Shown here: one piece after another, positions 2,224 through 61,536 of the stretch
Position numbering within the stretch: position 1 is the stretch's first letter
Layout of the letters: every line of letters starts with the position of its first letter
Source of the DNA: an uncultured Methanoregulaceae archaeon
GTDB lineage: Archaea; Halobacteriota; Methanomicrobia; Methanomicrobiales; Methanospirillaceae
Reading direction: 5' to 3'
DNA length: 64,000 nucleotides
Assembly (NCBI GenBank): GCA_963705255.1
Contig: OY970061.1
Span: 1,760,001-1,824,000, forward strand
Made by a program: the position numbers and the translations under genes
Notes under the pieces: generated by a model
Told to the model about the DNA's origin: nothing
Databases searched by the model: none
What the model saw: only the letters and a program-made list of their open reading frames with translations

Positions 2224-3429
2224 CTAGTTCAGGGTAAAGAATGTGGACCCCGACGGGTACCCTGTTTTGGCCTGGCCCGGGTCCCCTACCAGCAGCGCTG
2301 CCGACACGTTGTATTCGCCCGGCTGGAGCGCATTCGTGTCCATGGCAAAGGACACCCGGTTGGCGGTGCTACTGCCTTTCGTTACTTGGGAGTTTGCCAT
2401 CATTCCCGAAAAGGTCCCTGCCTGGTCAGGGTTCCCGGCAAGTGCTGCCGGTGTGACCTGCCAGAGTATGCCGGTCCCTACGGGAAGACTGGTCGTCCCG
2501 GTGACAAGGAACTGGTCCCCGGACGACCGGTCGCCGATCGCGTTCAGAGTGATGAAATCATCTCTGGTCACCGTAGGCTGGACCGGCGTATCGGTACCGA
2601 GATACGGCCCCTCAAGCGTGAAGAGCGCGGTGCCGGTGGCATTCCCGAGGTGTGCCGTGCCTTTGGACAGGTCCCCTTCCCAGTTCGTGACCGAGACGAG
2701 GAGTTCGTCCGGTTTGAGGATCGAGGTATCGATGGGGCAGGTGAACCGGTTGACATTTCCGGTGCCCTTCATCACCAGGGCCGAGGACCCGATCCCGGTA
2801 TTCGTCTTACTGCCGGGCTTCGCTTTTACCATCACCATAAGCTCCGTCCCGGCCGGGAAGTTAGTGGTGCCCGATACAACGATGAGGTCTCCCGTTGTCT
2901 TCGGGGCAATCGCGTCGATGAGGATGCACGGTTCGGTGCACGAGGACGCTGAATGGGCGGAGACTGCTGAGTCTGCCGATGCAGCCGGGTGAACGGTAAA
3001 TCTTGTCGATCCGAAGATCTCCCCTTTTGTGTAATCCCCTTTTGAGATGTCTCCCTTGAATGACGACACGTTGACGAGATATTCCATCGGCCTGAATGTT
3101 GAGGTGTTAAGCGGGAATGCCCATGTGTTGGTACCACCTGTACCTCCGGCGATCGTAACGGTCCCTGTCGCCCCGGTAAATTCACCGCTCCCGGTCCCCG
3201 TCTGGTCTTCAAAGGATGCGGGGTAGACTTCCGCGAGAATCTCCGTGCCGGCCGGGAGGCTGGTCTTGCCGGTGATGGTGAACTGGTCGCCAACGTTCTT
3301 ATCGCTCACCGGGTCAACGGAGATGAACGGTTTTGCGACCGAAAATCCGGTGACCATGCCGACGCATATCATGGCGGCAATGATACCGACGGCAAGGATG
3401 CTGCCGTACATGAGAGTCTGGTGTTTCAT
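2224..3429 (-). CDS. Surface protein with three S-layer-type Ig-like repeats
   Basis: Probable start MKHQTLMYG at 3429, signal anchor, 3 repeats including PFISVDPVSDKNVGDQFTITGKTSLPAG. Confidence 0.75.
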   Translation of the reverse strand: MKHQTLMYGSILAVGIIAAMICVGMVTGFSVAKPFISVDPVSDKNVGDQFTITGKTSLPAGTEILAEVYPASFEDQTGTGSGEFTGATGTVTIAGGTGGTNTWAFPLNTSTFRPMEYLVNVSSFKGDISKGDYTKGEIFGSTRFTVHPAASADSAVSAHSASSCTEPCILIDAIAPKTTGDLIVVSGTTNFPAGTELMVMVKAKPGSKTNTGIGSSALVMKGTGNVNRFTCPIDTSILKPDELLVSVTNWEGDLSKGTAHLGNATGTALFTLEGPYLGTDTPVQPTVTRDDFITLNAIGDRSSGDQFLVTGTTSLPVGTGILWQVTPAALAGNPDQAGTFSGMMANSQVTKGSSTANRVSFAMDTNALQPGEYNVSAALLVGDPGQAKTGYPSGSTFFTLN

Positions 3430-3436
3430 TGTTCCC

Positions 3437-3459
3437 ACAATGTAATATATTTTGTGCAT
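3437..3459 (-). promoter_or_regulatory. Conserved 23-bp upstream motif, copy 2
   Basis: Identical to 1359..1381; lies between a TTTATA box (minus strand, about 3464-3469) and the ATG. Confidence 0.6.
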
Positions 3460-3832
3460 TGTGTATAAACTTTTTGGCATATTGTGAAAATTTTTTTGCA
3501 AAATCGAGAGATTTTGATATGGAGGCTCGACCGGTCGTTGGTATCTGGCATGACACTCCTGAAAGGAGGAGGTTTTGTTTTTCCCGTTTATGGTAACGCC
3601 GGAGTGATCCCCCCTTTTCCGGAGTTGCCCGGACATACCATCCCCTGAAAAATAACTCCTCAATTTAGCCCCAGTTTGCCGAAATAAGCCCGATTTGAAA
3701 GGTCGATTTTCCGGGTATCGCGTTTTTTGGCGAATTATAGTACAGTGATTTTTGGATACGGCTGTATTATCGTTATTTTGCTCATCTGAAGGGCATTTCA
3801 GCCTCTGAAAAATGTCTCTTTATTGCCTTTTG

Positions 3833-4244: not shown

Positions 4245-6101
4245 TTATCGCACAGTTCCGAACCGGCCGATCACGCACTGGATCTCTGCTGCCACCCTCT
4301 TCAGTTCATCAATCCGGTCCGCAACCTTCTCTTCATGCCGTTTCCGCTCTGCAAGTGCCGAGTCGATCGCGCCATGGGTCGCCCCGATGGTCAGGCCAAG
4401 ATTAGCATCGAGATCGGCGCTGAACTTCCTGAATGCCGCATCAATGTTCTGCAGGGTCTCCCAGCGGAGGTTCTCGAGGTTGCGAATCACCAGCGTATCG
4501 ATCTGTTTTTTTAACCGGTTCCGTGCCCGGCTCTCGCGCAGCGATCCGGGCAGGAGGCGCCCGATGACCCCGGCCGGGATTGGTGAGAACGAACTGTCCC
4601 AGCAATGCTCGACCCAGTAGGGTTTTTTTACCGGCTCATAGGCGTATTCACCGTTCGGTGGATGGTACGGGATGTCAAAGAGCTCCGCTGCTGCCTTCCG
4701 GATAGATTCTGTGAGTTCGTCCGCCCTCTGTTCGTGATCTTTCAGCCTGGCAGCAACCTCTTTGTCCATCATCGAGGTGATCCTGCCAAGTTCGCGCTCG
4801 AACCATACCGGAATCTCGTCTGCCACGGCCTGCTGCGCCGCAGGCTCCGGGTCCTGCGGGGATGCTGCGATGGCCGATTCGGCAATCTTCGTGAGACGCT
4901 CACGGAGCGGGGCGCGAAGATTCTGGATATACGCTTCCAGCTGGGCGTGTACCCTTTTCTGGTCGCCGGTGAGGATATCCTGTGCGTGGATCCGCTGCTG
5001 CTGTGCCTTCGCGATCTTTTTGTCGAACAGGGCCAGTCTGTTCTCCAGCTGGGCGAGCGGCAGTTCGAGCGCCCGAATCTCAAGCTCGATCTGGAGCTGG
5101 ACATCATGGAAGAGATCGAGCGCTTTTCTCCCGATGGCGTCCCGCAACACGCGGTTCTTCTCACGGGCGAGAAAGGCAATGAGGTGATCGAAGATTTCAG
5201 CGAGCCCGCTCACCTCCCACAGGTCCTCATTGCCCGACTCTTTTGCCCGCAATCCCTCCCGTGCAGATATCGCAAAGATCCGGGTGCCGGGATCAATACC
5301 TACATCGCGTGTCAGGACCGTGCGATAGAACCCCAGTGCCACCTCCCGCTCCGCATCGGTCAGGTAGTCTACCTTATTCAGTACCAAGAATACCTGTGCG
5401 GCCCTGCTCCGGATCTCTTTGAGGAAGGTAACTTCGACTTCCATGATCGGCGGGTCGGCCGAGATGACGAAGAGAGCAGCATCGCACTGCGGCAGGAAGT
5501 TCATCGTCGCCTCGGTGTTGTGCCGGTAGGTCGAACCGATACCGGGCGTGTCGATGAGGACGACATCGCGGAGGATCGCAGCAGGGTGGGTGATCTCCAC
5601 CTGGAGAACTCCCTTTAAGTTCTTCGGATTGGAATCCTCGGTGACGAATCCCATGAGCTGTTTTTGCAGCCACCGGTTCCCGGAGGGAGGAGATGCGGGA
5701 AGACCCGTGTCTTCGATGCACTTCGTCGGTTCACCGTTGAGGACGGTATCCGGGCGGCTGTCATGGTACCGGACCCGGAGCAACCGCTGCTCCCCGTACC
5801 GGATGAATGTCGGGAGTGCCGTGAGCGGGACGACCGAACTCGGCAGGATGTCCTCGCCAAGCAGTGCGTTGATGAGCGTGCTCTTGCCCCGCTTGACCTG
5901 CCCGAGCACCGCGAGGTGGAACCGGCCCTGCGCGAGACGTTTTTCGAGTTCGTCCAGGCGCTGTGCATGGATGGCATAGCGGGGATCCATGGCCTCGAAG
6001 CGCCGCCGTTCGGTTTTCAGGATCTCCGCAAGGTTTTCCAGGACAGGGATCGTCCGGGTGTTGTGTGGGGGTAACGGGGTCGGGGTGCCGGTATCATCCA
6101 T
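4245..6101 (-). CDS. Dynamin-like GTPase A (bacterial dynamin-like protein family)
   Basis: G1 GQVKRGKS, G2 VVPLT, G3 DTPG, G4 NKVD, long helical C-terminus; GGGAGG RBS before ATG at 6101. Confidence 0.88.
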   Translation of the reverse strand: MDDTGTPTPLPPHNTRTIPVLENLAEILKTERRRFEAMDPRYAIHAQRLDELEKRLAQGRFHLAVLGQVKRGKSTLINALLGEDILPSSVVPLTALPTFIRYGEQRLLRVRYHDSRPDTVLNGEPTKCIEDTGLPASPPSGNRWLQKQLMGFVTEDSNPKNLKGVLQVEITHPAAILRDVVLIDTPGIGSTYRHNTEATMNFLPQCDAALFVISADPPIMEVEVTFLKEIRSRAAQVFLVLNKVDYLTDAEREVALGFYRTVLTRDVGIDPGTRIFAISAREGLRAKESGNEDLWEVSGLAEIFDHLIAFLAREKNRVLRDAIGRKALDLFHDVQLQIELEIRALELPLAQLENRLALFDKKIAKAQQQRIHAQDILTGDQKRVHAQLEAYIQNLRAPLRERLTKIAESAIAASPQDPEPAAQQAVADEIPVWFERELGRITSMMDKEVAARLKDHEQRADELTESIRKAAAELFDIPYHPPNGEYAYEPVKKPYWVEHCWDSSFSPIPAGVIGRLLPGSLRESRARNRLKKQIDTLVIRNLENLRWETLQNIDAAFRKFSADLDANLGLTIGATHGAIDSALAERKRHEEKVADRIDELKRVAAEIQCVIGRFGTVR

Positions 6102-6166
6102 AGGAGAATTCCTCCCTGTATCATCCGATCCTGGTGTGCCGCATGGCAGCACCGGCGATCGGGCGG

Positions 6167-6213
6167 GTAGGAGTTATCAGCACAAAAGGCGGTTAGCGGT
6201 GAACTCCATCACC
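6167..6213 (-). ncRNA. Fluoride riboswitch (crcB motif) upstream of dynamin A
   Basis: GGTGATGGAGTTCACC-GCTAACCGC-CTTTTGT-GCTGATAACTCCTAC: P1 GGTGA/TCACC, pseudoknot GGAGTT/AACTCC, conserved AACCGC and GCTGAT. Confidence 0.92.
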
Positions 6214-6322
6214 GGATACAGAAATTCTGCATGTGCTGATAATTAAGGGTTTGTCTCTTCCCGTACCATGAGGAAAAAAGAAAACTATTAGTGACAGGAA
6301 CCAGCATTTCTGATCTGTCAGT

Positions 6323-6368
6323 GGCGATGAAGTCCGCCATAACCGCCCGCCGGGGCTGATGACTTCTG
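6323..6368 (+). ncRNA. Fluoride riboswitch (crcB motif) upstream of the enolase remnant and dynamin B
   Basis: GGCGATGAAGTCCGCC-ATAACCGC-CCGCCGGG-GCTGATGACTTCTG: P1 GGCG/CGCC, pseudoknot GAAGTC/GACTTC. Confidence 0.92.
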
Positions 6369-6450
6369 TTTTACCGGTGATGAGGTCTGCTGTACCAGTA
6401 CGGCCAGCGGGTCTCTCACAGAAACTGGCCTGAACAGGGAGGGCAATTAC

Positions 6451-6599
<149 letters not shown>

Positions 6600-6611
6600 C
6601 CGGTCCTGACC

Positions 6612-8651
6612 ATGGCCCCGGATCCCGACACCCTGAACGAGAGCCAGGTTCGCCGTCTCCGTGTCACCTGCCAGCATATCGACAGGACGCTCAGCGAGAT
6701 CGAAGGAATCCTGAACGAGTCCGCATCACGGGCCGCGTTTCCCGCGTACATTGCAGACCTCTCCCCGCCCCAGCGGAAGACTCTCGAGGACTATATCGCA
6801 CGCGTCCGCGCCCGGCTCGTCCGGGTACTGGAAGGCCAGGGCATTGCCGCCAGCCAGCCGGGTATCCCCGTCTCGCGGGCAGTCCGCGGCAGGCTGTATT
6901 CGATTGACATTGCAGCAGAAGAACTCAAACCGAAGTACATGCGGGGATATGGCGAAGTCTCGGATACCGTTGCGACAGAACTGGACGGTATCGCGGGGGA
7001 GTTGCAGTCACTGGTCGTACGCCTTGACCAGTACCTTGCGGGGGGAGCCGGGCAGGATTTTAAGGAACGCCTGCAGCGGCTGGAAGGGGCAGGCAACGAC
7101 CTCGGCCTCCTCTCCTGGATCGAACGGGTTGTGGCGGATCGGGGCCTCGTTGAATTCCGGGGGACGATCGCTTCGATCCTCGACCGGGCAGAAGACCGGA
7201 GTTTTGAGATCGCGGTCTTCGGGCGTGTCAGCTCCGGGAAGTCGTCGCTCCTCAACGCCGTGCTCGGTACGGATCTGCTGCCGGTAGGCGTGACTCCGGT
7301 CACCGCTGTTCCCACACGCATCACCCACGGTGAGGAACCGTCGCTTACGGTATCGTTTGCCGATGCCCCGGCAAGAAAGTTCGAGATCCCAAGGCTCGGC
7401 GAATTCGCAACCGAGCAGCAGAATCCGGGGAACGCAAAGCATGTGACACGGATTACCGTCACCATCCCGGCATCAAGGCTCGCGAGCGGTGTCTCCTTTG
7501 TCGATACCCCGGGTCTCGGTTCGCTTGCAACGAGCGGGGCTGCCGAGACCCTCGCGTACCTGCCGAAGTGCGATCTCGGGGTGGTCCTGATAGACGCGGG
7601 ATCCACGCTGACCGGCGGGGACGTGCGGACGATCCTCGCATTGCAGGAAGCAGCCATCCCCGCACACATCCTGCTCAGTAAAGCCGACCTTCTCGACCGC
7701 CCTGATTGCGAAAAGACGATTGCATACGTGAAACAGCACATCGGTTCGGAGACCGGCCTTGACCTGCCGGTCCACCCGGTCAGCGTCCGCCCGTCGCACC
7801 GGCACCTGCTCGACCGCTGGTTCGGGGGGGACATCCTTCCGCTCTTCGACCGATCACAGGAACTCAGGGCCGCATCACTGCAGAGAAAGATCGGTCTGCT
7901 GCGGGAGTCAGTAATTTTCGATCTCCGGAAGAAGATCCAGCGGAGCCGGCAGGCATCACCGGAAGATACGGAAGAGCTCCGTGAAACCGGGGCCCGCCTG
8001 CGACGGGCAACCGGGCTTATCGGAGAGACACGCTCCGGATGCGAACGGGCAGCCGACGCAATCGCCGGGGATATTCCGGCGATATACAGCGCTGCCGCTG
8101 CCAGCGTCATGAAGATGAGGACGCATGAAGCCGATACGGGGAATACCGCTGACGATGTGATCCGCACTGCGGTTCTCCGGATTGTACAGGAGCGGGCAAA
8201 GAGTGTCCAGAGTCTCGTCGAAACCCTTGCCCTCCGGTTGCAGGAGGATCTGGTCAAAAGCGCGGCAGAAACCACGAGTGCCGACATGCCCGGCGATGAC
8301 GAATTCCCGTCGCTTGTCCGCGGTATGCCGGTTTTCGATCCCGTGACGATCCGCGTCTCCGTACCAAAATCCACGTATACCGCATTGCTGGGAAGGCGGT
8401 TTGAAGAGGAGCACCTTGTACGTCACATCCGCCGGCAACTCGGCGGATCCTTCGAGCCGGCTCTTGCAGGTTATAGCAGAGTCCTGAAGGAATGGGCAAG
8501 GCAAGTGACGGACCGGATGGGTGCAAAGTTCGAAACCTATGCTGAACGCTACCGTGCCCGGGCCGAGCGATCCCCTCATGGAACGGAACTGATGCCGGAA
8601 GAGATAGGGGCTGTTGAAGAGACCCTCAAAATGCTTGGGGACAATCCTTAA
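6612..8651 (+). CDS. Dynamin-like GTPase B
   Basis: N-terminal helical extension, G1 GRVSSGKS, G2 VTPVT, G3 DTPG, G4 SKAD, helical C-terminus. Confidence 0.88.
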   Translation: MAPDPDTLNESQVRRLRVTCQHIDRTLSEIEGILNESASRAAFPAYIADLSPPQRKTLEDYIARVRARLVRVLEGQGIAASQPGIPVSRAVRGRLYSIDIAAEELKPKYMRGYGEVSDTVATELDGIAGELQSLVVRLDQYLAGGAGQDFKERLQRLEGAGNDLGLLSWIERVVADRGLVEFRGTIASILDRAEDRSFEIAVFGRVSSGKSSLLNAVLGTDLLPVGVTPVTAVPTRITHGEEPSLTVSFADAPARKFEIPRLGEFATEQQNPGNAKHVTRITVTIPASRLASGVSFVDTPGLGSLATSGAAETLAYLPKCDLGVVLIDAGSTLTGGDVRTILALQEAAIPAHILLSKADLLDRPDCEKTIAYVKQHIGSETGLDLPVHPVSVRPSHRHLLDRWFGGDILPLFDRSQELRAASLQRKIGLLRESVIFDLRKKIQRSRQASPEDTEELRETGARLRRATGLIGETRSGCERAADAIAGDIPAIYSAAAASVMKMRTHEADTGNTADDVIRTAVLRIVQERAKSVQSLVETLALRLQEDLVKSAAETTSADMPGDDEFPSLVRGMPVFDPVTIRVSVPKSTYTALLGRRFEEEHLVRHIRRQLGGSFEPALAGYSRVLKEWARQVTDRMGAKFETYAERYRARAERSPHGTELMPEEIGAVEETLKMLGDNP

Positions 8652-8746
8652 AAAACTGCCAGCCCTGTAGGCTCAGCCATTCCTGATCGCCCCTGTTCGG
8701 AGTTTATCGCATAATTTACCTTCGAACATTCCGGATCATCAGCACT

Positions 8747-9400
8747 TCATCGATGACATCTTTCCCCCGGACTGGCTTTTTTCCATGATGGGGCAATACC
8801 TGCTGTATACTGTCGTTCGAGTGTTTCCTGCATACTGTTCAGGAGCTGTGCGAACCCTTCACCAAGACCGCCATGCCGGATATCCCGGATAACCGCATGC
8901 AGGAAAATCTGATGATAGATACAAAGGTCGTCAAAGACCGGATCAGAAAACCCGTAAAGCCGGTTTATGAGAAGCGCGGGCTGATACATCTCCCGGATCT
9001 TCTCCGGGGTGTCGTACCTGCAGATCGTCTCAAAGAACGTGTGCGAGGCCCGGACCATCCCGTCGATGAGCAGGGGGAGTTCCTCCGGCAGACCGGAGAA
9101 TTGCTGGGTGAAGACCGGGCAGAACCACGGTGCCTGACGGATCTCCGGGCGCAACGCACGGAACTCTGGGTAATGATAGATCTTCAGGATGGTTTCCCTG
9201 TCCGTGACGAGCCGGTACGCATTCCCGGGACCGGCTGAATTTTTACACAGCACGATGAATCCCGCATTCCGGAATGATTCGATCCACCTCCGTATCGTCG
9301 CCGCTTTCGTGAACCCGGCAGCGGTGGCGAGATCGATCTCGCTGTGTGACCCGCCATCGAGCAGGATATGCATCAACCGGGACTTGACCGGGGATTTCAT
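8747..9400 (-). CDS. Putative winged-helix DNA-binding protein
   Basis: N-terminal HTH-like segment (HSEIDLATAAGFTKAATIRRWIESFRNAGFI); ATGA overlap with the upstream gene. Confidence 0.6.
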   Translation of the reverse strand: MKSPVKSRLMHILLDGGSHSEIDLATAAGFTKAATIRRWIESFRNAGFIVLCKNSAGPGNAYRLVTDRETILKIYHYPEFRALRPEIRQAPWFCPVFTQQFSGLPEELPLLIDGMVRASHTFFETICRYDTPEKIREMYQPALLINRLYGFSDPVFDDLCIYHQIFLHAVIRDIRHGGLGEGFAQLLNSMQETLERQYTAGIAPSWKKASPGERCHR

Positions 9401-9792
9401 CGCGGTGCACCTTCCGGTACTACGCCGGCTGTCTCATCACATGCTGTTCGCACAACCGGGGATGGATGCTCCCTAAGTCTGCCGATCAGCTGTTGGCTGG
9501 CAGGAGATTTGATCCGTGACAGTGCATACACAATCTCACGCAAAGTGTACACGTCCTGGCCGGCGCGTATCATTGCTTCAAACGCCGGGACTGCCCGTTT
9601 GTATCGCCCCTGCCCGAGGATTTGTATCGCCATCATCCGGTGCTCACGGAGCGGGTGGTGCAGGGTGAGGAGGAGCCGCTCTTCATAGGGATGATCTTTC
9701 CAGTGTTCAATGGATCTTCCACACCGCTTGCAGATCTGTTCGTCCTCCGGGCTTTGTTTCCCGCAGAACGGGCAGAAGAAGGTCGTGCCCAT
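9397..9792 (-). CDS. Zn-ribbon + HEAT-repeat protein
   Basis: CPFC..CKRC ribbon followed by HEAT-like repeats; GAGGTGA RBS before ATG at 9792. Confidence 0.72.
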   Translation of the reverse strand: MGTTFFCPFCGKQSPEDEQICKRCGRSIEHWKDHPYEERLLLTLHHPLREHRMMAIQILGQGRYKRAVPAFEAMIRAGQDVYTLREIVYALSRIKSPASQQLIGRLREHPSPVVRTACDETAGVVPEGAPR

Positions 9793-9799
9793 CGTCACC

Positions 9800-10684
9800 T
9801 CAGTCGCAGCACTGCAGGGGATTGCCTGCATTCCTGCTGTCCGGGTTTTCCCGTATTCGTTCAATCGCTGTGAGTGCGTCCAGCGCGAGATAGGTATTTT
9901 CGAGCGTTGCCGATCCGCCGAATACCGACCGGACATATCCGCCGTTCTCACGGCAGCATTTCCTGATGAATTCTTCGCACTGCACCAGGATGGGCGAATG
10001 GTAGCCGTGCACTGAGCATGCGAGTACGCCGGCATGAATGTGTTCAAGATACGCGGGTTTTGTACCGGGCACCGCAAGGAAGCCATAGACGAGGTCTTCG
10101 CACTGTTTCAGAAAGTTTGTTGAACCTGTTGAGGAGATCGGATAACCGAGGGCTCTAAGGATGGCAAGCGCATGACCAGTCTCGATGATCGTGGATCGGG
10201 GATACCCGAAACCGGTGTCCGGGTACCGATAGCGGAGCACGGCGGTGACGATCTCATCTTTTTTCCCGGCGGAGATTACAGTTCCGGGAAGTGTGCAGAG
10301 ATCGGTGAGGAGATACAGGTGCCCGAAAGAGGAGGAGGATTCGACCGGCCGGATAGTGTCACCGGGTGGCAGCAGGGATGACAGAATCCAGTTTGAGGGA
10401 TCGATATGCGGTCGCTCACCAAGAATGTCCAGACTCCGGATCACTGCGTGCCCGACATTCACGTTCGAAAATTTTCCATCGGGATACTGGAACGCGTGAA
10501 GAAACGAGCAGGTAGTTTCATCATCGTCCGGTAATGCACCCAGCATTTTAAGCGATGCGAGTGCATGGAATGTGTCTCCGGCATTCGGCTCGTCGAGCCG
10601 GTAAAAACAGTAGCCACCGGAACTGCACCGCCGTTCCCGGATATACCGGATGGTTGTCTCCTGTTGAGGGATCATCGGCATCAT
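9800..10684 (-). CDS. Prenyltransferase/squalene-oxidase-repeat protein (COG1689-like)
   Basis: Repeated xxGGF/Y...T(F/Y)xAL motifs (SGGYCFY..DTFHAL; NGGYVRS..ENTYLAL) typical of alpha/alpha-toroid repeats. Confidence 0.75.
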   Translation of the reverse strand: MMPMIPQQETTIRYIRERRCSSGGYCFYRLDEPNAGDTFHALASLKMLGALPDDDETTCSFLHAFQYPDGKFSNVNVGHAVIRSLDILGERPHIDPSNWILSSLLPPGDTIRPVESSSSFGHLYLLTDLCTLPGTVISAGKKDEIVTAVLRYRYPDTGFGYPRSTIIETGHALAILRALGYPISSTGSTNFLKQCEDLVYGFLAVPGTKPAYLEHIHAGVLACSVHGYHSPILVQCEEFIRKCCRENGGYVRSVFGGSATLENTYLALDALTAIERIRENPDSRNAGNPLQCCD

Positions 10685-10697
10685 CTACCATACACTG

Positions 10698-10745
10698 GTA
10701 GAAGTCATCAGCCGGAAAGGGCGGTTTGTGGCGGACTTCATCGCC
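10698..10745 (-). ncRNA. Fluoride riboswitch (crcB motif) upstream of the COG1689-like operon
   Basis: GGCGATGAAGTCCGCC-ACAAACCGC-CCTTTCCG-GCTGATGACTTCTAC, ending 13 nt before the ATG. Confidence 0.93.
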
Positions 10746-11050
10746 GGTACGATAGTGTGGGGTGCGATGATAATTGAAGGTTACGACAAAACGGGTTGGA
10801 GAATGAGAATGACGGGAGAATCCCGGGGCGTAGCGGCCCGAACGTACTTCGTGAGTCCAATCAACAGCGACGAACAGAGTGCGGAGCATGGGTGAAGAGC
10901 GGGCCGGGGAAGCTGCTGGCGCCTTCTGCATCTTCCCCTCAATCATCTCATGGACCGTCTTCTCGATCGAGAAAGAGGGTTACCCACATATCTGCCTCAG
11001 ATAAAAAAACAAAATCAGTGGGAAAGAAGGATTTCAAAAGATCCGGCGGG

Positions 11051-12145
11051 TCAGACACTGTCCCGTGGCACTGCTGTCCGGGGCTTCCTCGCCCGCTTCG
11101 GTTTCGGCTTCCGTTCGTGTGTGCCTTCCTCTCCATCGTCGGAATCTTCATCCAATCCTATCTCTTCGGATTCATGGGGGAGAGGAGACAGAATATCCGG
11201 AGCCCTCTTCCTCTCCTCCGGCGCCGGTTTGTGGATGAGGATTGCGTCGAGCACAGCCTCCACCCCCTCACCCGTCTGCGTGGACATCGTCAGGTAACCC
11301 TCTGCCGCAACGATATCCGATTTGTTTGCCACGACGACCACCGGCACACCCACCATCCCTTGTACTTCCTCAAGCAGGTTGAGCTGCACGTCTATCGGGT
11401 AGCCGCAGTGCTCCGAAGGGTCGAGGATGAAAAGGACAACGTCGGCGACATTCATCATGGCGGAGAGTGCCTGCCGTTCGATCTGGTTCCGCTCTTCGGC
11501 AGGGCGGTCGAGGATACCCGGGGTATCCACGAACTGGATCCGCTCCCGTCCCATCTCCCTGTGCCCCACGATGATGCCTTTTGTGGTAAACGGATAGGAG
11601 GCAATCTGCGGTTCAGCAGAGGAAACGCGCCGGATGAAGGAGGACTTGCCAACGTTCGGGTATCCTGCGATCACCGTCGTGAATGCGTCCTCGACATGGG
11701 GAAGCTTGCGGAGCACATTCCTGACCTCGTTGAGGAAGAGGAGGTCGTTGTCAATCTGGTGGACCATGGAAGCGAGCCGGGCGACCGCACGTTTTCTCAG
11801 GACAAGGGTATCGTCCGCCCTCCGCGACTGCATGGCAAGCTGGCCCCCCACCATCTTGGTGTGTTTTGCAGCCCACCCGACGGCACCGAGGGACTGTTTG
11901 ATGGTGTCTATTCCGTAGAGGATGTCCGCCAGTTCCCGGTAAAACGGCGGGATGCTGTCGAACTCGGGAAACCCCCGTATGATATAGACAAGGCGGTCGT
12001 GGATCGCCGCACCGACCGCACGGACGAACTCCTCGTTTGCCCGCTCCTTGTTGATCTTCTCCTTCATCTTTTTCGCCGCACGGCGGAAACTCCGGTCCAG
12101 GATCTCGTCGGCAGTCGGGACCGTCGGCATTTTTTCGAATTCCAC
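11051..12145 (-). CDS. NOG1-family GTP-binding protein
   Basis: PTVPTADEILDRSF N-terminus, GYPNVGKSS, YPFTT, DTPG, NKSD; probable GTG start. Confidence 0.9.
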   Translation of the reverse strand: MEFEKMPTVPTADEILDRSFRRAAKKMKEKINKERANEEFVRAVGAAIHDRLVYIIRGFPEFDSIPPFYRELADILYGIDTIKQSLGAVGWAAKHTKMVGGQLAMQSRRADDTLVLRKRAVARLASMVHQIDNDLLFLNEVRNVLRKLPHVEDAFTTVIAGYPNVGKSSFIRRVSSAEPQIASYPFTTKGIIVGHREMGRERIQFVDTPGILDRPAEERNQIERQALSAMMNVADVVLFILDPSEHCGYPIDVQLNLLEEVQGMVGVPVVVVANKSDIVAAEGYLTMSTQTGEGVEAVLDAILIHKPAPEERKRAPDILSPLPHESEEIGLDEDSDDGEEGTHERKPKPKRARKPRTAVPRDSV

Positions 12146-12191
12146 AAATCGCCTACCTATATATTTATGGAATGCCATACGGTTTATCGTT

Positions 12192-13070
12192 ATGGACCTG
12201 TCCCTGATCCAGAAGGATATCCTCATCACCCTGATCACCCTCTACCACCAGCAGTCGCATTCCATCAAAGGGGAAGATATTGCCGAGATGATCCAGCGCA
12301 ACCCCGGGACGGTGCGCAACCAGATGCAGGCCCTGAGAGCCATCGGGCTCGTGGACGGAGTACCGGGCCCGAAAGGGGGATACATACCGACGGCCCTTGC
12401 CTACGCGGAACTCAACCTGAACGTTTCCGGAGGCGACTATGATGTCATGATCAGCAGGAACGGGGAGCCCGTCTCGGGAGCAAATGTCAAGGAGATCGAT
12501 TTTACCACGCTCTGCCACCCGGATGTCTGCCACGCGGTGATCAAACTCGTCGGCTCGGCAAAACTCTTCGAGATCGGTGACCAGATCACGATCGGTCCCA
12601 CCCCGGTCAACAAACTCATGATCCGGGGAGAGGTCTTCGGCAGGGACGAATCCCGCCAGTCCCTCCTCATCTCGACATCCGAGATGATCTCGCTGCCCAA
12701 GAAGCCGATAAAAAACTACATGAGCACCCCGTTGAAGACCCTGAAAAGCCCGGATACGCTCATGGACGCCCTTCTCCTATTCAACCGTGACCACATCCAT
12801 GGCGCCCCGGTCATGGATAATGGCCGGCTTGCCGGTATTATCACGATGAGCGATATTGCAAAGGCCATTGAAAAAGGACTGCCGCTCACCACGCAGGTTT
12901 CCGGGGTGATGACTGCTGATGTCGTCGAAGCGTCCTCGGATACGAAACTGTTCGAGGTCATCCGCAGGTTCAAGGAGCGGGAGATCGGCAGGCTTGTCGT
13001 GGTCGAGGACGGGAAACCGGTCGGCATCCTCACCCAGTCGGATATCATCCGGGTATTCCCCTCGTTTTAA
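12192..13070 (+). CDS. Winged-helix + CBS-pair transcriptional regulator (COG2524-like)
   Basis: RNPGTVRNQMQAL..GPKGGY N-terminus; two C-terminal CBS domains. Confidence 0.85.
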   Translation: MDLSLIQKDILITLITLYHQQSHSIKGEDIAEMIQRNPGTVRNQMQALRAIGLVDGVPGPKGGYIPTALAYAELNLNVSGGDYDVMISRNGEPVSGANVKEIDFTTLCHPDVCHAVIKLVGSAKLFEIGDQITIGPTPVNKLMIRGEVFGRDESRQSLLISTSEMISLPKKPIKNYMSTPLKTLKSPDTLMDALLLFNRDHIHGAPVMDNGRLAGIITMSDIAKAIEKGLPLTTQVSGVMTADVVEASSDTKLFEVIRRFKEREIGRLVVVEDGKPVGILTQSDIIRVFPSF

Positions 13071-13420: not shown

Positions 13421-13675
13421 ATGACTCGTATATTTGCCCGCAGCCTTTCGAGAAAGAAGATCATGAGCAATGACGGCAAGCTCATCGGCACCCTCAAGAA
13501 CATCCGGGTAGATTTTGATTCCGGGCAGGTCTGCGAGATGATCATCCACCCGGACCAGGCCTTTGCCACCGATGGTTACAACCTGGAAGATGACAAGCTC
13601 CTCCTCATCCCGTTCGAGGCGGTCAAGGACATCAAAGACTATATTGTCGTGGATCGCTATCTCGCGAAAAAATAA
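13421..13675 (+). CDS. PRC-barrel domain protein
   Basis: DGKLIG..IPFEAVKDIKDYIVV. Confidence 0.85.
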   Translation: MTRIFARSLSRKKIMSNDGKLIGTLKNIRVDFDSGQVCEMIIHPDQAFATDGYNLEDDKLLLIPFEAVKDIKDYIVVDRYLAKK

Positions 13676-14355
13676 GACGAATATTTTTCGACGGCTTCGG
13701 TGAACCCGTCGCCATATCCTTTTTCCGTGACATAATCGGCCACCGCTTTTGTCTCCGGATGCGCATTTGCCACCGCTATCCCTGTCCCGGCAGTCCTGAG
13801 CATATGGATATCGTTGACCGAATCGCCGACCGCCAGGAAATCGGCCGGGGAAAGACCCATCTCCTCCGCGAGTGCTACGAGCGCTGTCCCTTTGTTGATG
13901 CCAGGGGACTGCAGGTGAATTGCATACCCGGTGTCAATCACCTGCACCGGGTGATCGCGGAGGACGGTCTTCACTTCTTCGACAGGGACCGTCCGGGCAA
14001 ACGCGAGGTCCGCAAACCGGTACGCCGGGTTGAAGAGCTCGAGTTCCCGCCCCTTCTGCCGGTAATACGCCTGGACTATTCCGAGGGCATCTTTACACTC
14101 TCCCTGGTCTCCGGTAATATGGAGGGGACCGGTGAACCCTGTCCGGAATACTCCCCCGTTTTCTGCAATGAACGTGCCGTCAGTCCCGATCATCTTGCAG
14201 AGTGCGTCCATGAAGCAGGACGTATTCCCGCTTGCCAGTACCACCCTCACCCCCCGATCGGTGAGGGACCGGATCGCCTCAATGGACCCGGTGCTGATCC
14301 TCCGGGAGGGATCGGTAAGTGTCCCGTCAATATCGGTCAGGAGCGCTTTCAGCAC
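13657..14355 (-). CDS. Phosphoglycolate phosphatase, archaeal HAD type
   Basis: DIDGTLT, ASGN, NKG, GDSVND motifs. Confidence 0.88.
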
Positions 14356-51796: not shown

Positions 51797-51869
51797 GGCC
51801 AGGGCCGAGATTCGAACCCGGGTCGGAGGATCCACAGTCCTCTAGGATAACCAACTACCCTACCCTGGC
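51797..51869 (-). tRNA. tRNA-His (GTG)
   Basis: GCCAGGG acceptor stem, anticodon arm GAGGA-CTGTGGA-TCCTC, T-loop GGTTCGAATC. Confidence 0.95.
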
Positions 51870-60976: not shown

Positions 60977-61048
60977 GGGCTCGTAGATCAGGGGTAGATC
61001 GTTACGTTCGCAACGTAAAGGCCGCGGGTTCAAATCCCGCCGGGTCCA
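60977..61048 (+). tRNA. tRNA-Ala (CGC)
   Basis: GGGCTCG/CGGGTCC acceptor stem, anticodon arm TTACG-TTCGCAA-CGTAA, GGTTCAAATCC. Confidence 0.95.
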
Positions 61049-61464: not shown

Positions 61465-61536
61465 GGGCTCGTAGATCAGGGGTAGATCGTCACGTTTGCA
61501 ACGTGAAGGCCACGGGTTCAAATCCCGTCGAGTCCA
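61465..61536 (+). tRNA. tRNA-Ala (TGC)
   Basis: GGGCTCG/CGAGTCC acceptor stem, anticodon arm TCACG-TTTGCAA-CGTGA. Confidence 0.95.

Follow-up and report, generated by a model that had tools for sequence, protein, structure and literature searches.

Why should three fluoride riboswitches of an archaeon stand before genes for dynamin-like GTPases, in a genome in which no fluoride exporter can be recognised? The question is raised by a stretch of 64,000 nucleotides (hereafter the window; positions 1,760,001 to 1,824,000 of contig OY970061.1, assembly GCA_963705255.1) in which three crcB-class aptamers lie within 4.6 kb, each heading its own unit, and in which the first two units carry the GTPase genes dynA and dynB. 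An earlier note, made from the letters alone, had described this island as a fluoride-induced, non-exporter stress system. Our favoured explanation, which we hold with some confidence, is that a Methanoregula-like methanogen has here a fluoride regulon of three riboswitch-led units, with GTPases that would act on the membrane. Its parts differ in strength: control of the island genes by fluoride is highly probable on the comparisons given below, while mitigation of fluoride stress by the GTPases at the membrane is a tentative proposal by analogy, which we would place somewhat on the doubtful side.

The source genome (G000) is a single contig of 2,600,650 bases from a Methanoregula-like member of the order Methanomicrobiales, with a marker-gene completeness of 89.5%. 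The entire window was searched with cmscan against Rfam 15, in which the fluoride riboswitch family RF01734 has a gathering score of 34 bits. Comparisons within the order were made on 61 genomes, namely G000, 36 genomes of the same genus and 24 of the same order, and ten regions of 18-20 kb from relatives were compared for gene order. DynA orthologues in this set were accepted at E <= 1e-30.

Three fluoride aptamers and the units they head

The features of the island, with coordinates in the window, are as follows.

4245..6101, minus strand: dynA, dynamin-like GTPase of the BDLP/IniA/mitofusin class, 618 aa from ATG 6101; Dynamin_N 91.2 bits against a cut-off of 27
6161..6222, minus strand: fluoride riboswitch aptamer 1 (dynA class); RF01734 52.9 bits, E 8.2e-12
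6239..6246, minus strand: TATA-like box TTAATTAT of unit 1, picked by eye
6281..6290, plus strand: TATA-like box AAAACTATTA of unit 2, picked by eye
6314..6375, plus strand: fluoride riboswitch aptamer 2 (enolase class); RF01734 53.3 bits, E 6.1e-12
6399..6596, plus strand: enolase pseudogene scar, the last ~67 codons; Enolase_C positions 229-293 of 296, 43.1 bits, one TGA
6612..8651, plus strand: dynB, second dynamin-like GTPase, 679 aa; Dynamin_N 83.8 bits against 27, residues 200-340
8747..9400, minus strand: 217-aa protein, last gene of unit 3, possible N-terminal winged helix; no family
9397..9792, minus strand: zinc-ribbon and HEAT-repeat protein, 131 aa, from ATG 9792; HEAT_2 36.9 bits against 27.7
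9800..10684, minus strand: alpha/alpha-toroid protein, 294 aa, first gene of unit 3; PF00432 40.6 bits against 26.5
10692..10754, minus strand: fluoride riboswitch aptamer 3 (toroid class); RF01734 55.4 bits, E 1.3e-12
10769..10778, minus strand: TATA-like box TTCAATTATC of unit 3, picked by eye

All three aptamers match the full RF01734 model (positions 1-64 of 64) and are the only matches over the cut-off in the whole genome, so that their occurrence within 4.6 kb is not due to chance; a fourth candidate in the genome, at 22.6 bits, was set aside, its aptamer core not being seen by eye. The earlier note had placed crcB-class aptamers at 6167-6213, 6323-6368 and 10698-10745, intervals that lie inside the matches, and with 52.9-55.4 bits in a comparison run on both window and genome these aptamers are genuine. 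It had also assigned each of them to the sense-strand 5' leader of a separate unit (DynA; enolase scar plus DynB; the toroid protein, which it called COG1689-like, with the Zn-ribbon/HEAT and 217-aa proteins), and this reading stands: aptamer 1 lies 59 nt 5' of the dynA ATG, aptamer 2 lies 23 nt 5' of the enolase scar and 236 nt 5' of the dynB ATG, and the Rfam match of aptamer 3 stops 7 nt before the toroid ATG at 10684.

Each class of aptamer recurs before its own gene in other members of the order. The dynA-class aptamers precede dynA in relatives as orthologues, the enolase-class sequence heads a full enolase gene in G046, G009 and G023, and orthologous toroid-class aptamers precede the toroid gene in G046, G042, G048, G009 and G051. 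When 25 aptamers of the order were aligned, the sequence classes tracked the downstream gene across genera, which indicates that switch and gene were inherited together. The differences between classes are compensatory, with GGUGAUGGAGUUCACC...UGAUAACUCC in the nine dynA-linked aptamers versus GGCGAUGAAGUCCGCC...UGAUGACUUC in the enolase, DynB and toroid classes. Over the whole alignment, pairing is complete (100% of cells) in P1 and in the pseudoknot of 6 bp, and reaches 86.7% in P3. Five pairs are changed on both sides; of the four pairs of P1 one carries compensatory double changes, and of the six of the pseudoknot three do. The covariation score was reached by none of 500 shuffles, a count that is not a probability as the sequences are related, and pairing fell to 32-58% of cells in slid controls, in which the partner was moved by 1-3 columns. 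The dynA-class P3 is odd (GCC-UUUU-GUGC): cmscan marks two non-standard pairs in it, and it is kept in eight of nine dynA-class aptamers.

AT-rich boxes (TTAATTAT, AAAACTATTA and TTCAATTATC) lie 17-30 nt 5' of each aptamer and are conserved within classes. The unit 1 box has a TTAA(T/C) core at equal offset 5' of all nine dynA-class aptamers compared; AAAACTATT(A/T) is kept 5' of enolase-class aptamers in the window, G046, G009 and G020; and TTCAATTATC is also found 5' of the G009 toroid aptamer, with TTCAACTACC 5' of the G020 crcB aptamer. Judged by eye, these boxes are putative archaeal TATA boxes, from which transcripts would start at the aptamer. A Shine-Dalgarno-like GGAGG occurs 6-12 nt before the start codon in all nine dynA leaders, and in their minimum free energy folds it is paired in eight, with the 3' pseudoknot strand of the aptamer in only three. 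An assignment to translational or transcriptional control was dropped, as no consistent switch appeared in the nine folded leaders. Oligo-U terminates archaeal RNA polymerase. The enolase-class aptamers all end in a conserved CUUCUGUUUUA (6368-6375 in the window; also L039, L042, L043, L044 and L047), a four-U run straight after the pseudoknot strand, and this class might therefore act through transcription attenuation.

Conservation of the association and origin of the layout

Within the order, RF01734 matches over the cut-off occur in 19 of 61 genomes, often clustered, and DynA orthologues in 13, G000 included. Of the 12 relatives, 11 have an aptamer over the cut-off directly upstream of DynA and on its strand; the twelfth, G047, has a 26.5-bit RF01734 match upstream, at a contig end. 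Beyond the order, a DynA alignment was compared with one genome per species (185,579 species), and the best 80 of 584 relatives (identity 36-79%) were analysed with a covariance model, R1, trained on the 25 aptamers of Methanomicrobiales, the window's three among them. A same-strand R1 aptamer lies within 400 nt upstream of DynA in 67 of these 80 loci and 646-2331 nt upstream in a further seven, with distances measured from the estimated DynA start; six loci have no R1 aptamer upstream, two of them with less than 130 nt of upstream DNA. In total, R1 gave 105 matches in the 641,212 bases of these loci, versus three over the cut-off in the 2.6 Mb of G000. Since the training set of R1 came from within the order, a cross-check with Rfam RF01734 at its gathering score was made on 18 of the 80 loci; it returned 23 matches and placed one directly upstream of DynA in 15 of 18. 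Conservation of the switch-dynamin link well beyond the source genome is thus borne out at both levels.

The family is large: at E <= 1e-30 it takes in 1,589 of 1.84 billion representative clusters. In a FastTree phylogeny of 77 rows, 55 are labelled Bacteria (including Thermodesulfobacteriota, Myxococcota, Acidobacteriota, Planctomycetota, Bacillota, Nitrospirota, Spirochaetota and Thermotogota) and 15 Archaea, the latter on one branch with support 99. The tree has no outgroup, so that no donor is named; of the 80 loci, L058, L082, L086, L094, L118 and L121 were omitted for an incomplete DynA frame or match, and L081 and L112, which are 5'-truncated, were removed by hand. An enolase match falls in the flanks of 31 of the 80 loci, Ndom (the N-terminal domain of DynB, described below) in 12, the toroid in eight and crcB in seven, and on this recurrence of gene neighbours the regulon is coherent.

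Gene order in the relatives shows what the island formerly contained. Recurrent arrangements include (i) aptamer-dynA, followed in two families by a full enolase, (ii) aptamer-enolase-Ndom, and (iii) in G046, a unit 3 that reads aptamer-toroid-ZnHEAT-217aa-crcB-crcB-DUF190. In G020, two divergent aptamers lead a crcB pair and DynB respectively, and in G048 a third aptamer heads crcB. At the place of the scar, which lacks the full N- and C-terminal domains of an enolase in one open frame, relatives have a gene of 430-477 aa; in tblastn the scar corresponds to residues 394-460 of an enolase of 460 aa from a relative, with 52% identity and one internal stop. The riboswitch-linked enolase is a second paralogue in all five relatives checked (382-393 bits, versus 236-243 bits for the other locus), and G000 retains only the 236-243-bit type. 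Since relatives carry both the crcB-crcB-DUF190 tail and a full linked enolase, the window's layout is, on this comparison, derived: unit 2 has lost its enolase to decay, and unit 3 its crcB-DUF190 tail. The exporter-free state is accordingly best described as a secondary loss, and the wording "non-exporter system" of the earlier note needs amendment, given that G046, G020 and G048 carry crcB behind such switches. Nor is the dynamin pair obligatory, as most bacterial relatives have DynA without DynB and G020 has DynB alone, without DynA.

That no exporter is recognisable had been claimed for the window, and the claim extends to the whole genome. In six frames of the 89.5%-complete genome, CrcB (CRCB, PF02537) gave no match over the cut-off (none of one candidate), in a search whose control was positive in 11 of 14 named genomes. 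The sole CLC protein is encoded ~1.48 Mb from the island. Two Cl-/H+ CLCs, 1kpl and ClC-ec1, match it at 105.2 and 93 bits, versus 43.9 bits for the CLC-F 6d0j, and GREGP and GGVFAP are readable in its sequence. By these scores, which do not reveal ion selectivity, it is more like the Cl-/H+ exchangers than like CLC-F. As far as can be judged from a genome with frame errors and 89.5% completeness, a recognisable fluoride exporter is absent. As a side observation, the C-terminus of this CLC (L005 1153-2808, minus strand) is garbled past the start of a CBS-like region, and the housekeeping-type enolase of G000 (C1 about 1677360-1678548; L006 1501-2689, minus strand) is broken into two ORFs (210 and 205 aa) that overlap. 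Both may be either assembly insertion/deletion errors or real pseudogenes, and such broken frames may account for the completeness of 89.5%.

These losses give some substance to a different account, in which the island is a decaying remnant: the ancestral island would have worked through crcB and the extra enolase, and the surviving genes would no longer aid fluoride tolerance here. Behind switch 2 there remains only a 67-codon scar with a stop, the crcB-crcB-DUF190 genes that follow the 217-aa gene in G046 are missing from a genome without CrcB, and the riboswitch-linked enolase of G009 is fragmented too (three frames with a stop; L042 9300-10505, minus strand). Public short-read contigs match the junctions of the window with 0 differences and no insertions or deletions listed. 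One Logan contig (X1 record 3) covers 6318-7223, and with it aptamer 2, the scar and the dynB start, and a second covers 7754-9044, joining the ends of dynB and of the 217-aa gene, both with 0 differences; a contig from another study covers 6567-6742, and the source of the best contig may be the genome's own sample. Read-depth peaks at 6410-6630 (X5, X6) stem from conserved enolase ends of other organisms and have no meaning for the source genome. Against decay of the whole island, the scores of the three aptamers have stayed at the level of those in relatives (53-55 bits), and its five protein genes are intact although other genes of the assembly, the housekeeping enolase and CLC among them, have broken frames. 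G051, which is 99% complete, has the same crcB-less layout, so that this state is kept in two families. Enolase has, moreover, been lost more than once with Ndom or DynB kept, as in G000 and in G037, in which the aptamer stands directly before Ndom. We regard a decaying remnant as improbable.

Further breaks of regulon genes were seen in relatives, namely in-frame stops in one Methanolinea Ndom (L060 6343-6711, plus strand) and in one toroid gene (L057 2412-3320, plus strand); together with the G009 enolase these are either sequencing errors of the bins or repeated decay. The order also holds fluoride aptamers before other genes. In three same-genus relatives without DynA, a thermosome gene (Cpn60_TCP1, >510 bits) lies 137-167 nt 3' of an RF01734 match of 40.4-41.7 bits (L025 1501-1564, plus strand, with the gene from 1724; L026 1501-1564, minus strand; L028 1501-1563, minus strand). 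Two of these three aptamers and the sub-threshold match of L029 have a deviating core, GGGAUGA(C/U/G)GACUUC, and may be variant or decaying; a chaperonin under fluoride control would, if true, be a further unreported target. G042 has a fourth aptamer (L040 4776-4836, minus strand, 46 bits), behind which lie a 95-aa ORF without a family and the gene of a 544-aa MutS domain V protein (L040 2951-4582, minus strand); MutS-like genes are given as a known riboswitch partner by Weinberg 2010 (PMC2864571). Finally, in three relatives, from two families, the neighbour of the fluoride island is a heavy-metal P-type ATPase gene (E1-E2_ATPase plus two HMA domains; L039 15892-18327, minus strand; L045 12111-14555, minus strand; L043 4037-6466, plus strand), which is not part of the window's island.

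The encoded proteins and their possible role

The two dynamin genes that the earlier note had named are real, with Dynamin_N matches of 91.2 bits (4245-6152, minus strand) and 83.8 bits (6612-8651, plus strand), and are the only Dynamin_N genes in the genome. The open frame of dynA (635 aa) extends 5' to GTG 6152, which had been taken as its start; ATG 6101 is more likely, since orthologues begin at a matching MDDT. The G1 (GQVKRGKST), G3 (DTPG) and G4 (NKVD) motifs of DynA are invariant in 77 sequences, and DynB has the P-loop GRVSSGKSS, DTPG and SKAD. Among PDB sequences, phmmer places BDLP 2j68 first for DynA (E 1.7e-21), followed by Campylobacter DLP2 and DLP1, and IniA at E 2.9e-13. An AlphaFold2 model of DynA built from 77 sequences (pLDDT 87.9, pTM 0.82) has a G domain followed by long helices at 300-615, and its Foldseek matches are IniA 6j72 (E 1.8e-21, TM 0.45-0.49), BDLP 2j69 (1.5e-19), SynDLP (1.1e-12), Cj-DLP (2.9e-12) and mitofusins. 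The last two long helices are joined by a poorly defined loop of ~40 residues (~475-518 in the model, pLDDT 49-63), which contains an invariant Trp and near-invariant Phe and Pro; by our reading of the model, this aromatic tip loop would occupy the position of the membrane paddle of BDLP-class proteins. The G000 DynA has in addition a 16-residue insertion between two G-domain strands (residues ~117-133 of the 635-aa frame; columns 188-203; model pLDDT 60-71), which is missing from all seven aligned orthologues.

DynB differs from DynA by a fused helical domain, Ndom, at residues 1-150, modelled as five helices (pLDDT 89.5). It is fused to DynB in G000, G020 and G042 and is a standalone gene in G046, G023, G009 and G037, in several relatives after the riboswitch-linked enolase. 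Pfam and NCBIfam searches placed it in no family, a single-sequence search returned its own cluster only, and Foldseek against PDB gave no match at E <= 0.001; the best fold candidate by VIA-align (Z 7.5 over 62 residues, helical hairpins) was rejected as within helical-bundle noise. Homologues number 55, and all but one of the named ones are called "hypothetical protein". Among 80 metagenome loci of Ndom, a same-strand aptamer lies within 400 nt in 21, at 401-2000 nt in 17 (mostly ~1.4-1.5 kb, the length of an enolase gene) and farther away in six; 16 loci show no aptamer within less than 1.7 kb of upstream DNA.

The proteins of unit 3 are less readily assigned. The toroid belongs to the prenyltransferase/class II terpene cyclase superfamily: a profile of nine orthologues matches SQHop_cyclase_C 7xqz (1.7e-6), the FTase beta subunit 3q73_B (2.4e-6) and RabGGT beta (3e-6) in PDB, and NCBIfam returned a 14.7-bit match to squalene cyclases only. 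The Zn-ribbon/HEAT protein scores 18.8-19.7 bits to zinc-ribbon models, under the cut-off, with CPFC...CKRC readable, and its G046 orthologue is also 131 aa; from its most likely start, ATG 9792, it does not overlap the toroid gene. The 217-aa protein, a wHTH protein in the earlier note, has no Pfam or NCBIfam match over the cut-off. Its helix-turn-helix scores are all sub-threshold (HTH_29 13.8 bits versus 28.1; for an orthologue, MarR 14.3 and GntR 17.8), its Atlas neighbours at 0.83-0.87 include Penicillinase_R, IclR and MarR clusters, and its orthologues hold the same position in G046, G051 and G042.

Fluoride enters cells mainly as HF and accumulates in the cytoplasm. Under the regulon reading, HF entry and the cytoplasmic build-up of fluoride would be the first step, upon which the crcB-class aptamers would bind fluoride with Mg2+ and raise expression of the genes behind them. 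Unit 1 would supply DynA, a soluble BDLP/IniA-class dynamin-like GTPase; unit 2, which once began with the second, bacterial-type enolase, would supply DynB with its helical domain; and unit 3 would supply the prenyltransferase-like toroid, the Zn-ribbon/HEAT protein and a possible DNA-binding protein, running on in relatives into crcB-crcB and DUF190. The GTPases would then bind the cytoplasmic membrane in a GTP-dependent manner and stabilise, reseal or remodel it under fluoride or acid stress, as IniA and other bacterial dynamins reportedly do under envelope stress. The comparisons establish the aptamers, where they sit, their conservation with these genes and the fold class of DynA; induction by fluoride in vivo, the kind of expression platform, membrane binding and a benefit under fluoride are what we infer, and it is the BDLP/IniA-like fold by itself that would suggest membrane remodelling. 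A bolder version, which we rate as unlikely, makes the DynA family an exporter-independent effector of fluoride tolerance with fluoride itself as its signal, in which, once the riboswitch has induced it, GDP-Mg-fluoride would lock the GTPase into membrane assemblies that lower HF permeability or reseal damage. If true, a methanogen with three switches and neither Fluc nor CLC-F could live with fluoride at low pH, and prokaryotic dynamins would gain a first defined physiological trigger across both domains.

Several observations weigh against the regulon as we read it. A clear expression platform was not found: in most of the nine dynA leaders, blocking of the pseudoknot strands does not free the GGAGG. 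DynA is missing from 48 of 61 related genomes and is thus dispensable, and the G000 island is itself partly decaying, having lost enolase and crcB. CrcB occurs in 14 of the 61 genomes, in five of 13 with DynA versus nine of 48 without, so that it is not rarer where DynA is present; these counts, from genomes that are kin and not independent, also speak against DynA as a replacement for CrcB. No transmembrane or strongly hydrophobic segment is found in the five island proteins (highest 19-residue Kyte-Doolittle mean 1.32), which leaves membrane binding unproven. An aptamer is lacking in 20 of the 80 Ndom metagenome loci despite at least 1.7 kb of upstream DNA, and was not detected for the full-length DynB orthologue of G015. 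Among public RNA runs, none was found that covers the island stretch.

What the GTPases do once induced can be read in two other ways. Metal fluorides trap GTPases as GDP-bound transition-state mimics, and fluoride with Mg2+ or Al3+ might thus poison dimerising GTPases of which the cell makes more, keeping up a housekeeping membrane function. The enolase of the regulon invites this comparison: it is a classical fluoride target, is co-regulated and frequent in the flanks of DynA loci (31 of 80), and as a second paralogue in five of five relatives it suggests that doubling of an inhibited enzyme is part of the regulon's logic. For the dynamins, however, the genome encodes no other Dynamin_N protein, the 48 relatives without DynA imply that there is no housekeeping function to protect, and the genes stand only behind the switch, so that the protein is presumably scarce without fluoride; compensation for a poisoned target is for these reasons unlikely. 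About equally unlikely, in our estimate, is a role away from the membrane, in which the GTPases would act on DNA, ribosomes or protein complexes in a general damage response. The E. coli dynamin-like GTPase CrfC is reported to have such a non-membrane role, and the NCBIfam search gave weak partial matches to CrfC (40.7 bits against a cut-off of 1146). The lack of a hydrophobic segment would fit, as would the aptamers before MutS domain V and thermosome genes, by which the regulon reaches DNA and protein maintenance. The nearest structures by sequence and fold (BDLP, IniA, Cj-DLP1/2, SynDLP and mitofusins) are, on the other hand, membrane-active, and the conserved aromatic tip loop would sit where these proteins have their paddle. 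That the aptamers sense another ligand or are non-functional look-alikes is hardly credible on their sequences: the non-canonical P3 of eight of nine dynA-class aptamers apart, they score ~19-21 bits above the curated cut-off, keep P1 and the pseudoknot fully with compensatory changes, and share the classical fluoride set (crcB, enolase, DUF190, MutS-like) as co-regulated genes.

Relation to known systems and the surrounding genes

A classical gene set for fluoride riboswitch regulons was reportedly given by Baker et al. in 2012. In the consulted parts of PMC11139923 and PMC2864571, the targets of RF01734 are crcB/Fluc, eriC-F/CLC-F, enolase, Na+/H+ antiporters, pyrophosphatase, MutS-like proteins and formate hydrogen lyase. 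The island shares with such regulons the aptamer family in 5' leaders and, in its relatives, crcB, DUF190, enolase and MutS-like genes behind the same aptamers. It differs in that (i) its main cargo is a dynamin-like GTPase pair with the toroid, Zn-HEAT and proteins of no family, which those parts of the literature do not name, (ii) G000 retains no exporter, and (iii) the host is an archaeon, with putative TATA-box promoters and no terminator hairpin seen.

Among dynamins, DynA resembles Mycobacterium IniA (IniA/IniC, 6J72/6J73), the top fold match of its model, in being a soluble dynamin-like protein (DLP) of about 600 aa. IniA is isoniazid-inducible and is induced by envelope-acting drugs, and we know of no riboswitch of iniBAC; DynA is only 18% identical to IniA, and would differ from it in the inducing signal and in the kind of regulator. 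With Nostoc BDLP (2J68/2J69/2W6D), its top PDB sequence match, and the Campylobacter DLPs, it shares a G domain with a long helical neck and trunk and a tip between. As with C. jejuni DLP1/DLP2 (5OWV/5OXF), two different DLPs are encoded side by side; in contrast to that pair, dynA and dynB are divergent, each with its own switch, their pairing is known from the genes alone, and most relatives carry DynA alone. Neither BDLP nor the C. jejuni DLPs have the extra N-terminal helical domain of DynB, which is of no known family.

The aptamer family and the DLP superfamily are each known, and their pairing was not found in the literature. No paper was found that joins a fluoride riboswitch to a dynamin, in keeping with the earlier note, which knew of no characterised fluoride-controlled dynamin, while supplementary gene lists (Baker et al. 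2012, Weinberg 2010) may name the family. The words dynamin and GTPase have 0 occurrences in the main text of PMC11139923, PMC7266159 and PMC2864571, and a survey of fluoride riboswitch and GTPase literature by title and abstract start gave nothing relevant, PMC9971707 having GTPase only in its references. Reviews (PMC11139923) present the fluoride response under the heads of export, homeostasis of pH and ions, the handling of phosphate, and compensation in metabolism; to these the switch-dynamin pairing would add a candidate membrane branch.

The interest of the system stems from its reach across domains, its strong conservation and its direct testability with NaF. To our knowledge, what prokaryotic dynamin-like proteins do in the cell is for the most part unsettled, and for archaeal ones hardly anything has been established; a conserved cis-acting fluoride sensor before a large DLP family, spread over many bacterial phyla and Methanomicrobiales, would provide a cheap and specific inducer. 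To this the window adds a set of three orthologous switch classes in an archaeon, a regulon that kept its GTPases and lost both exporter and enolase, and two protein families of no known function, Ndom and the 217-aa protein, tied to the same switch.

The flanks of the island are made up of ordinary genes on the right, namely those of a NOG1-type GTPase (11051-12238, minus strand), an HrcA-like winged-helix and CBS-pair regulator (12048-13070, plus strand) and a HAD phosphatase (Hydrolase_3; 13657-14355, minus strand). A 548-aa ORF divergent from switch 3 (10796-12442, plus strand) was rejected as a shadow of the NOG1-type GTPase gene. On the left, the ORFs at 96-1352, 1615-2187 and 2224-3663, all on the minus strand, are without a Pfam family. 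Elsewhere, the window contains three tRNA genes, at 51797-51869 (minus strand), 60977-61048 (plus strand) and 61465-61536 (plus strand), the plus-strand pair being near-identical copies 488 nt apart.

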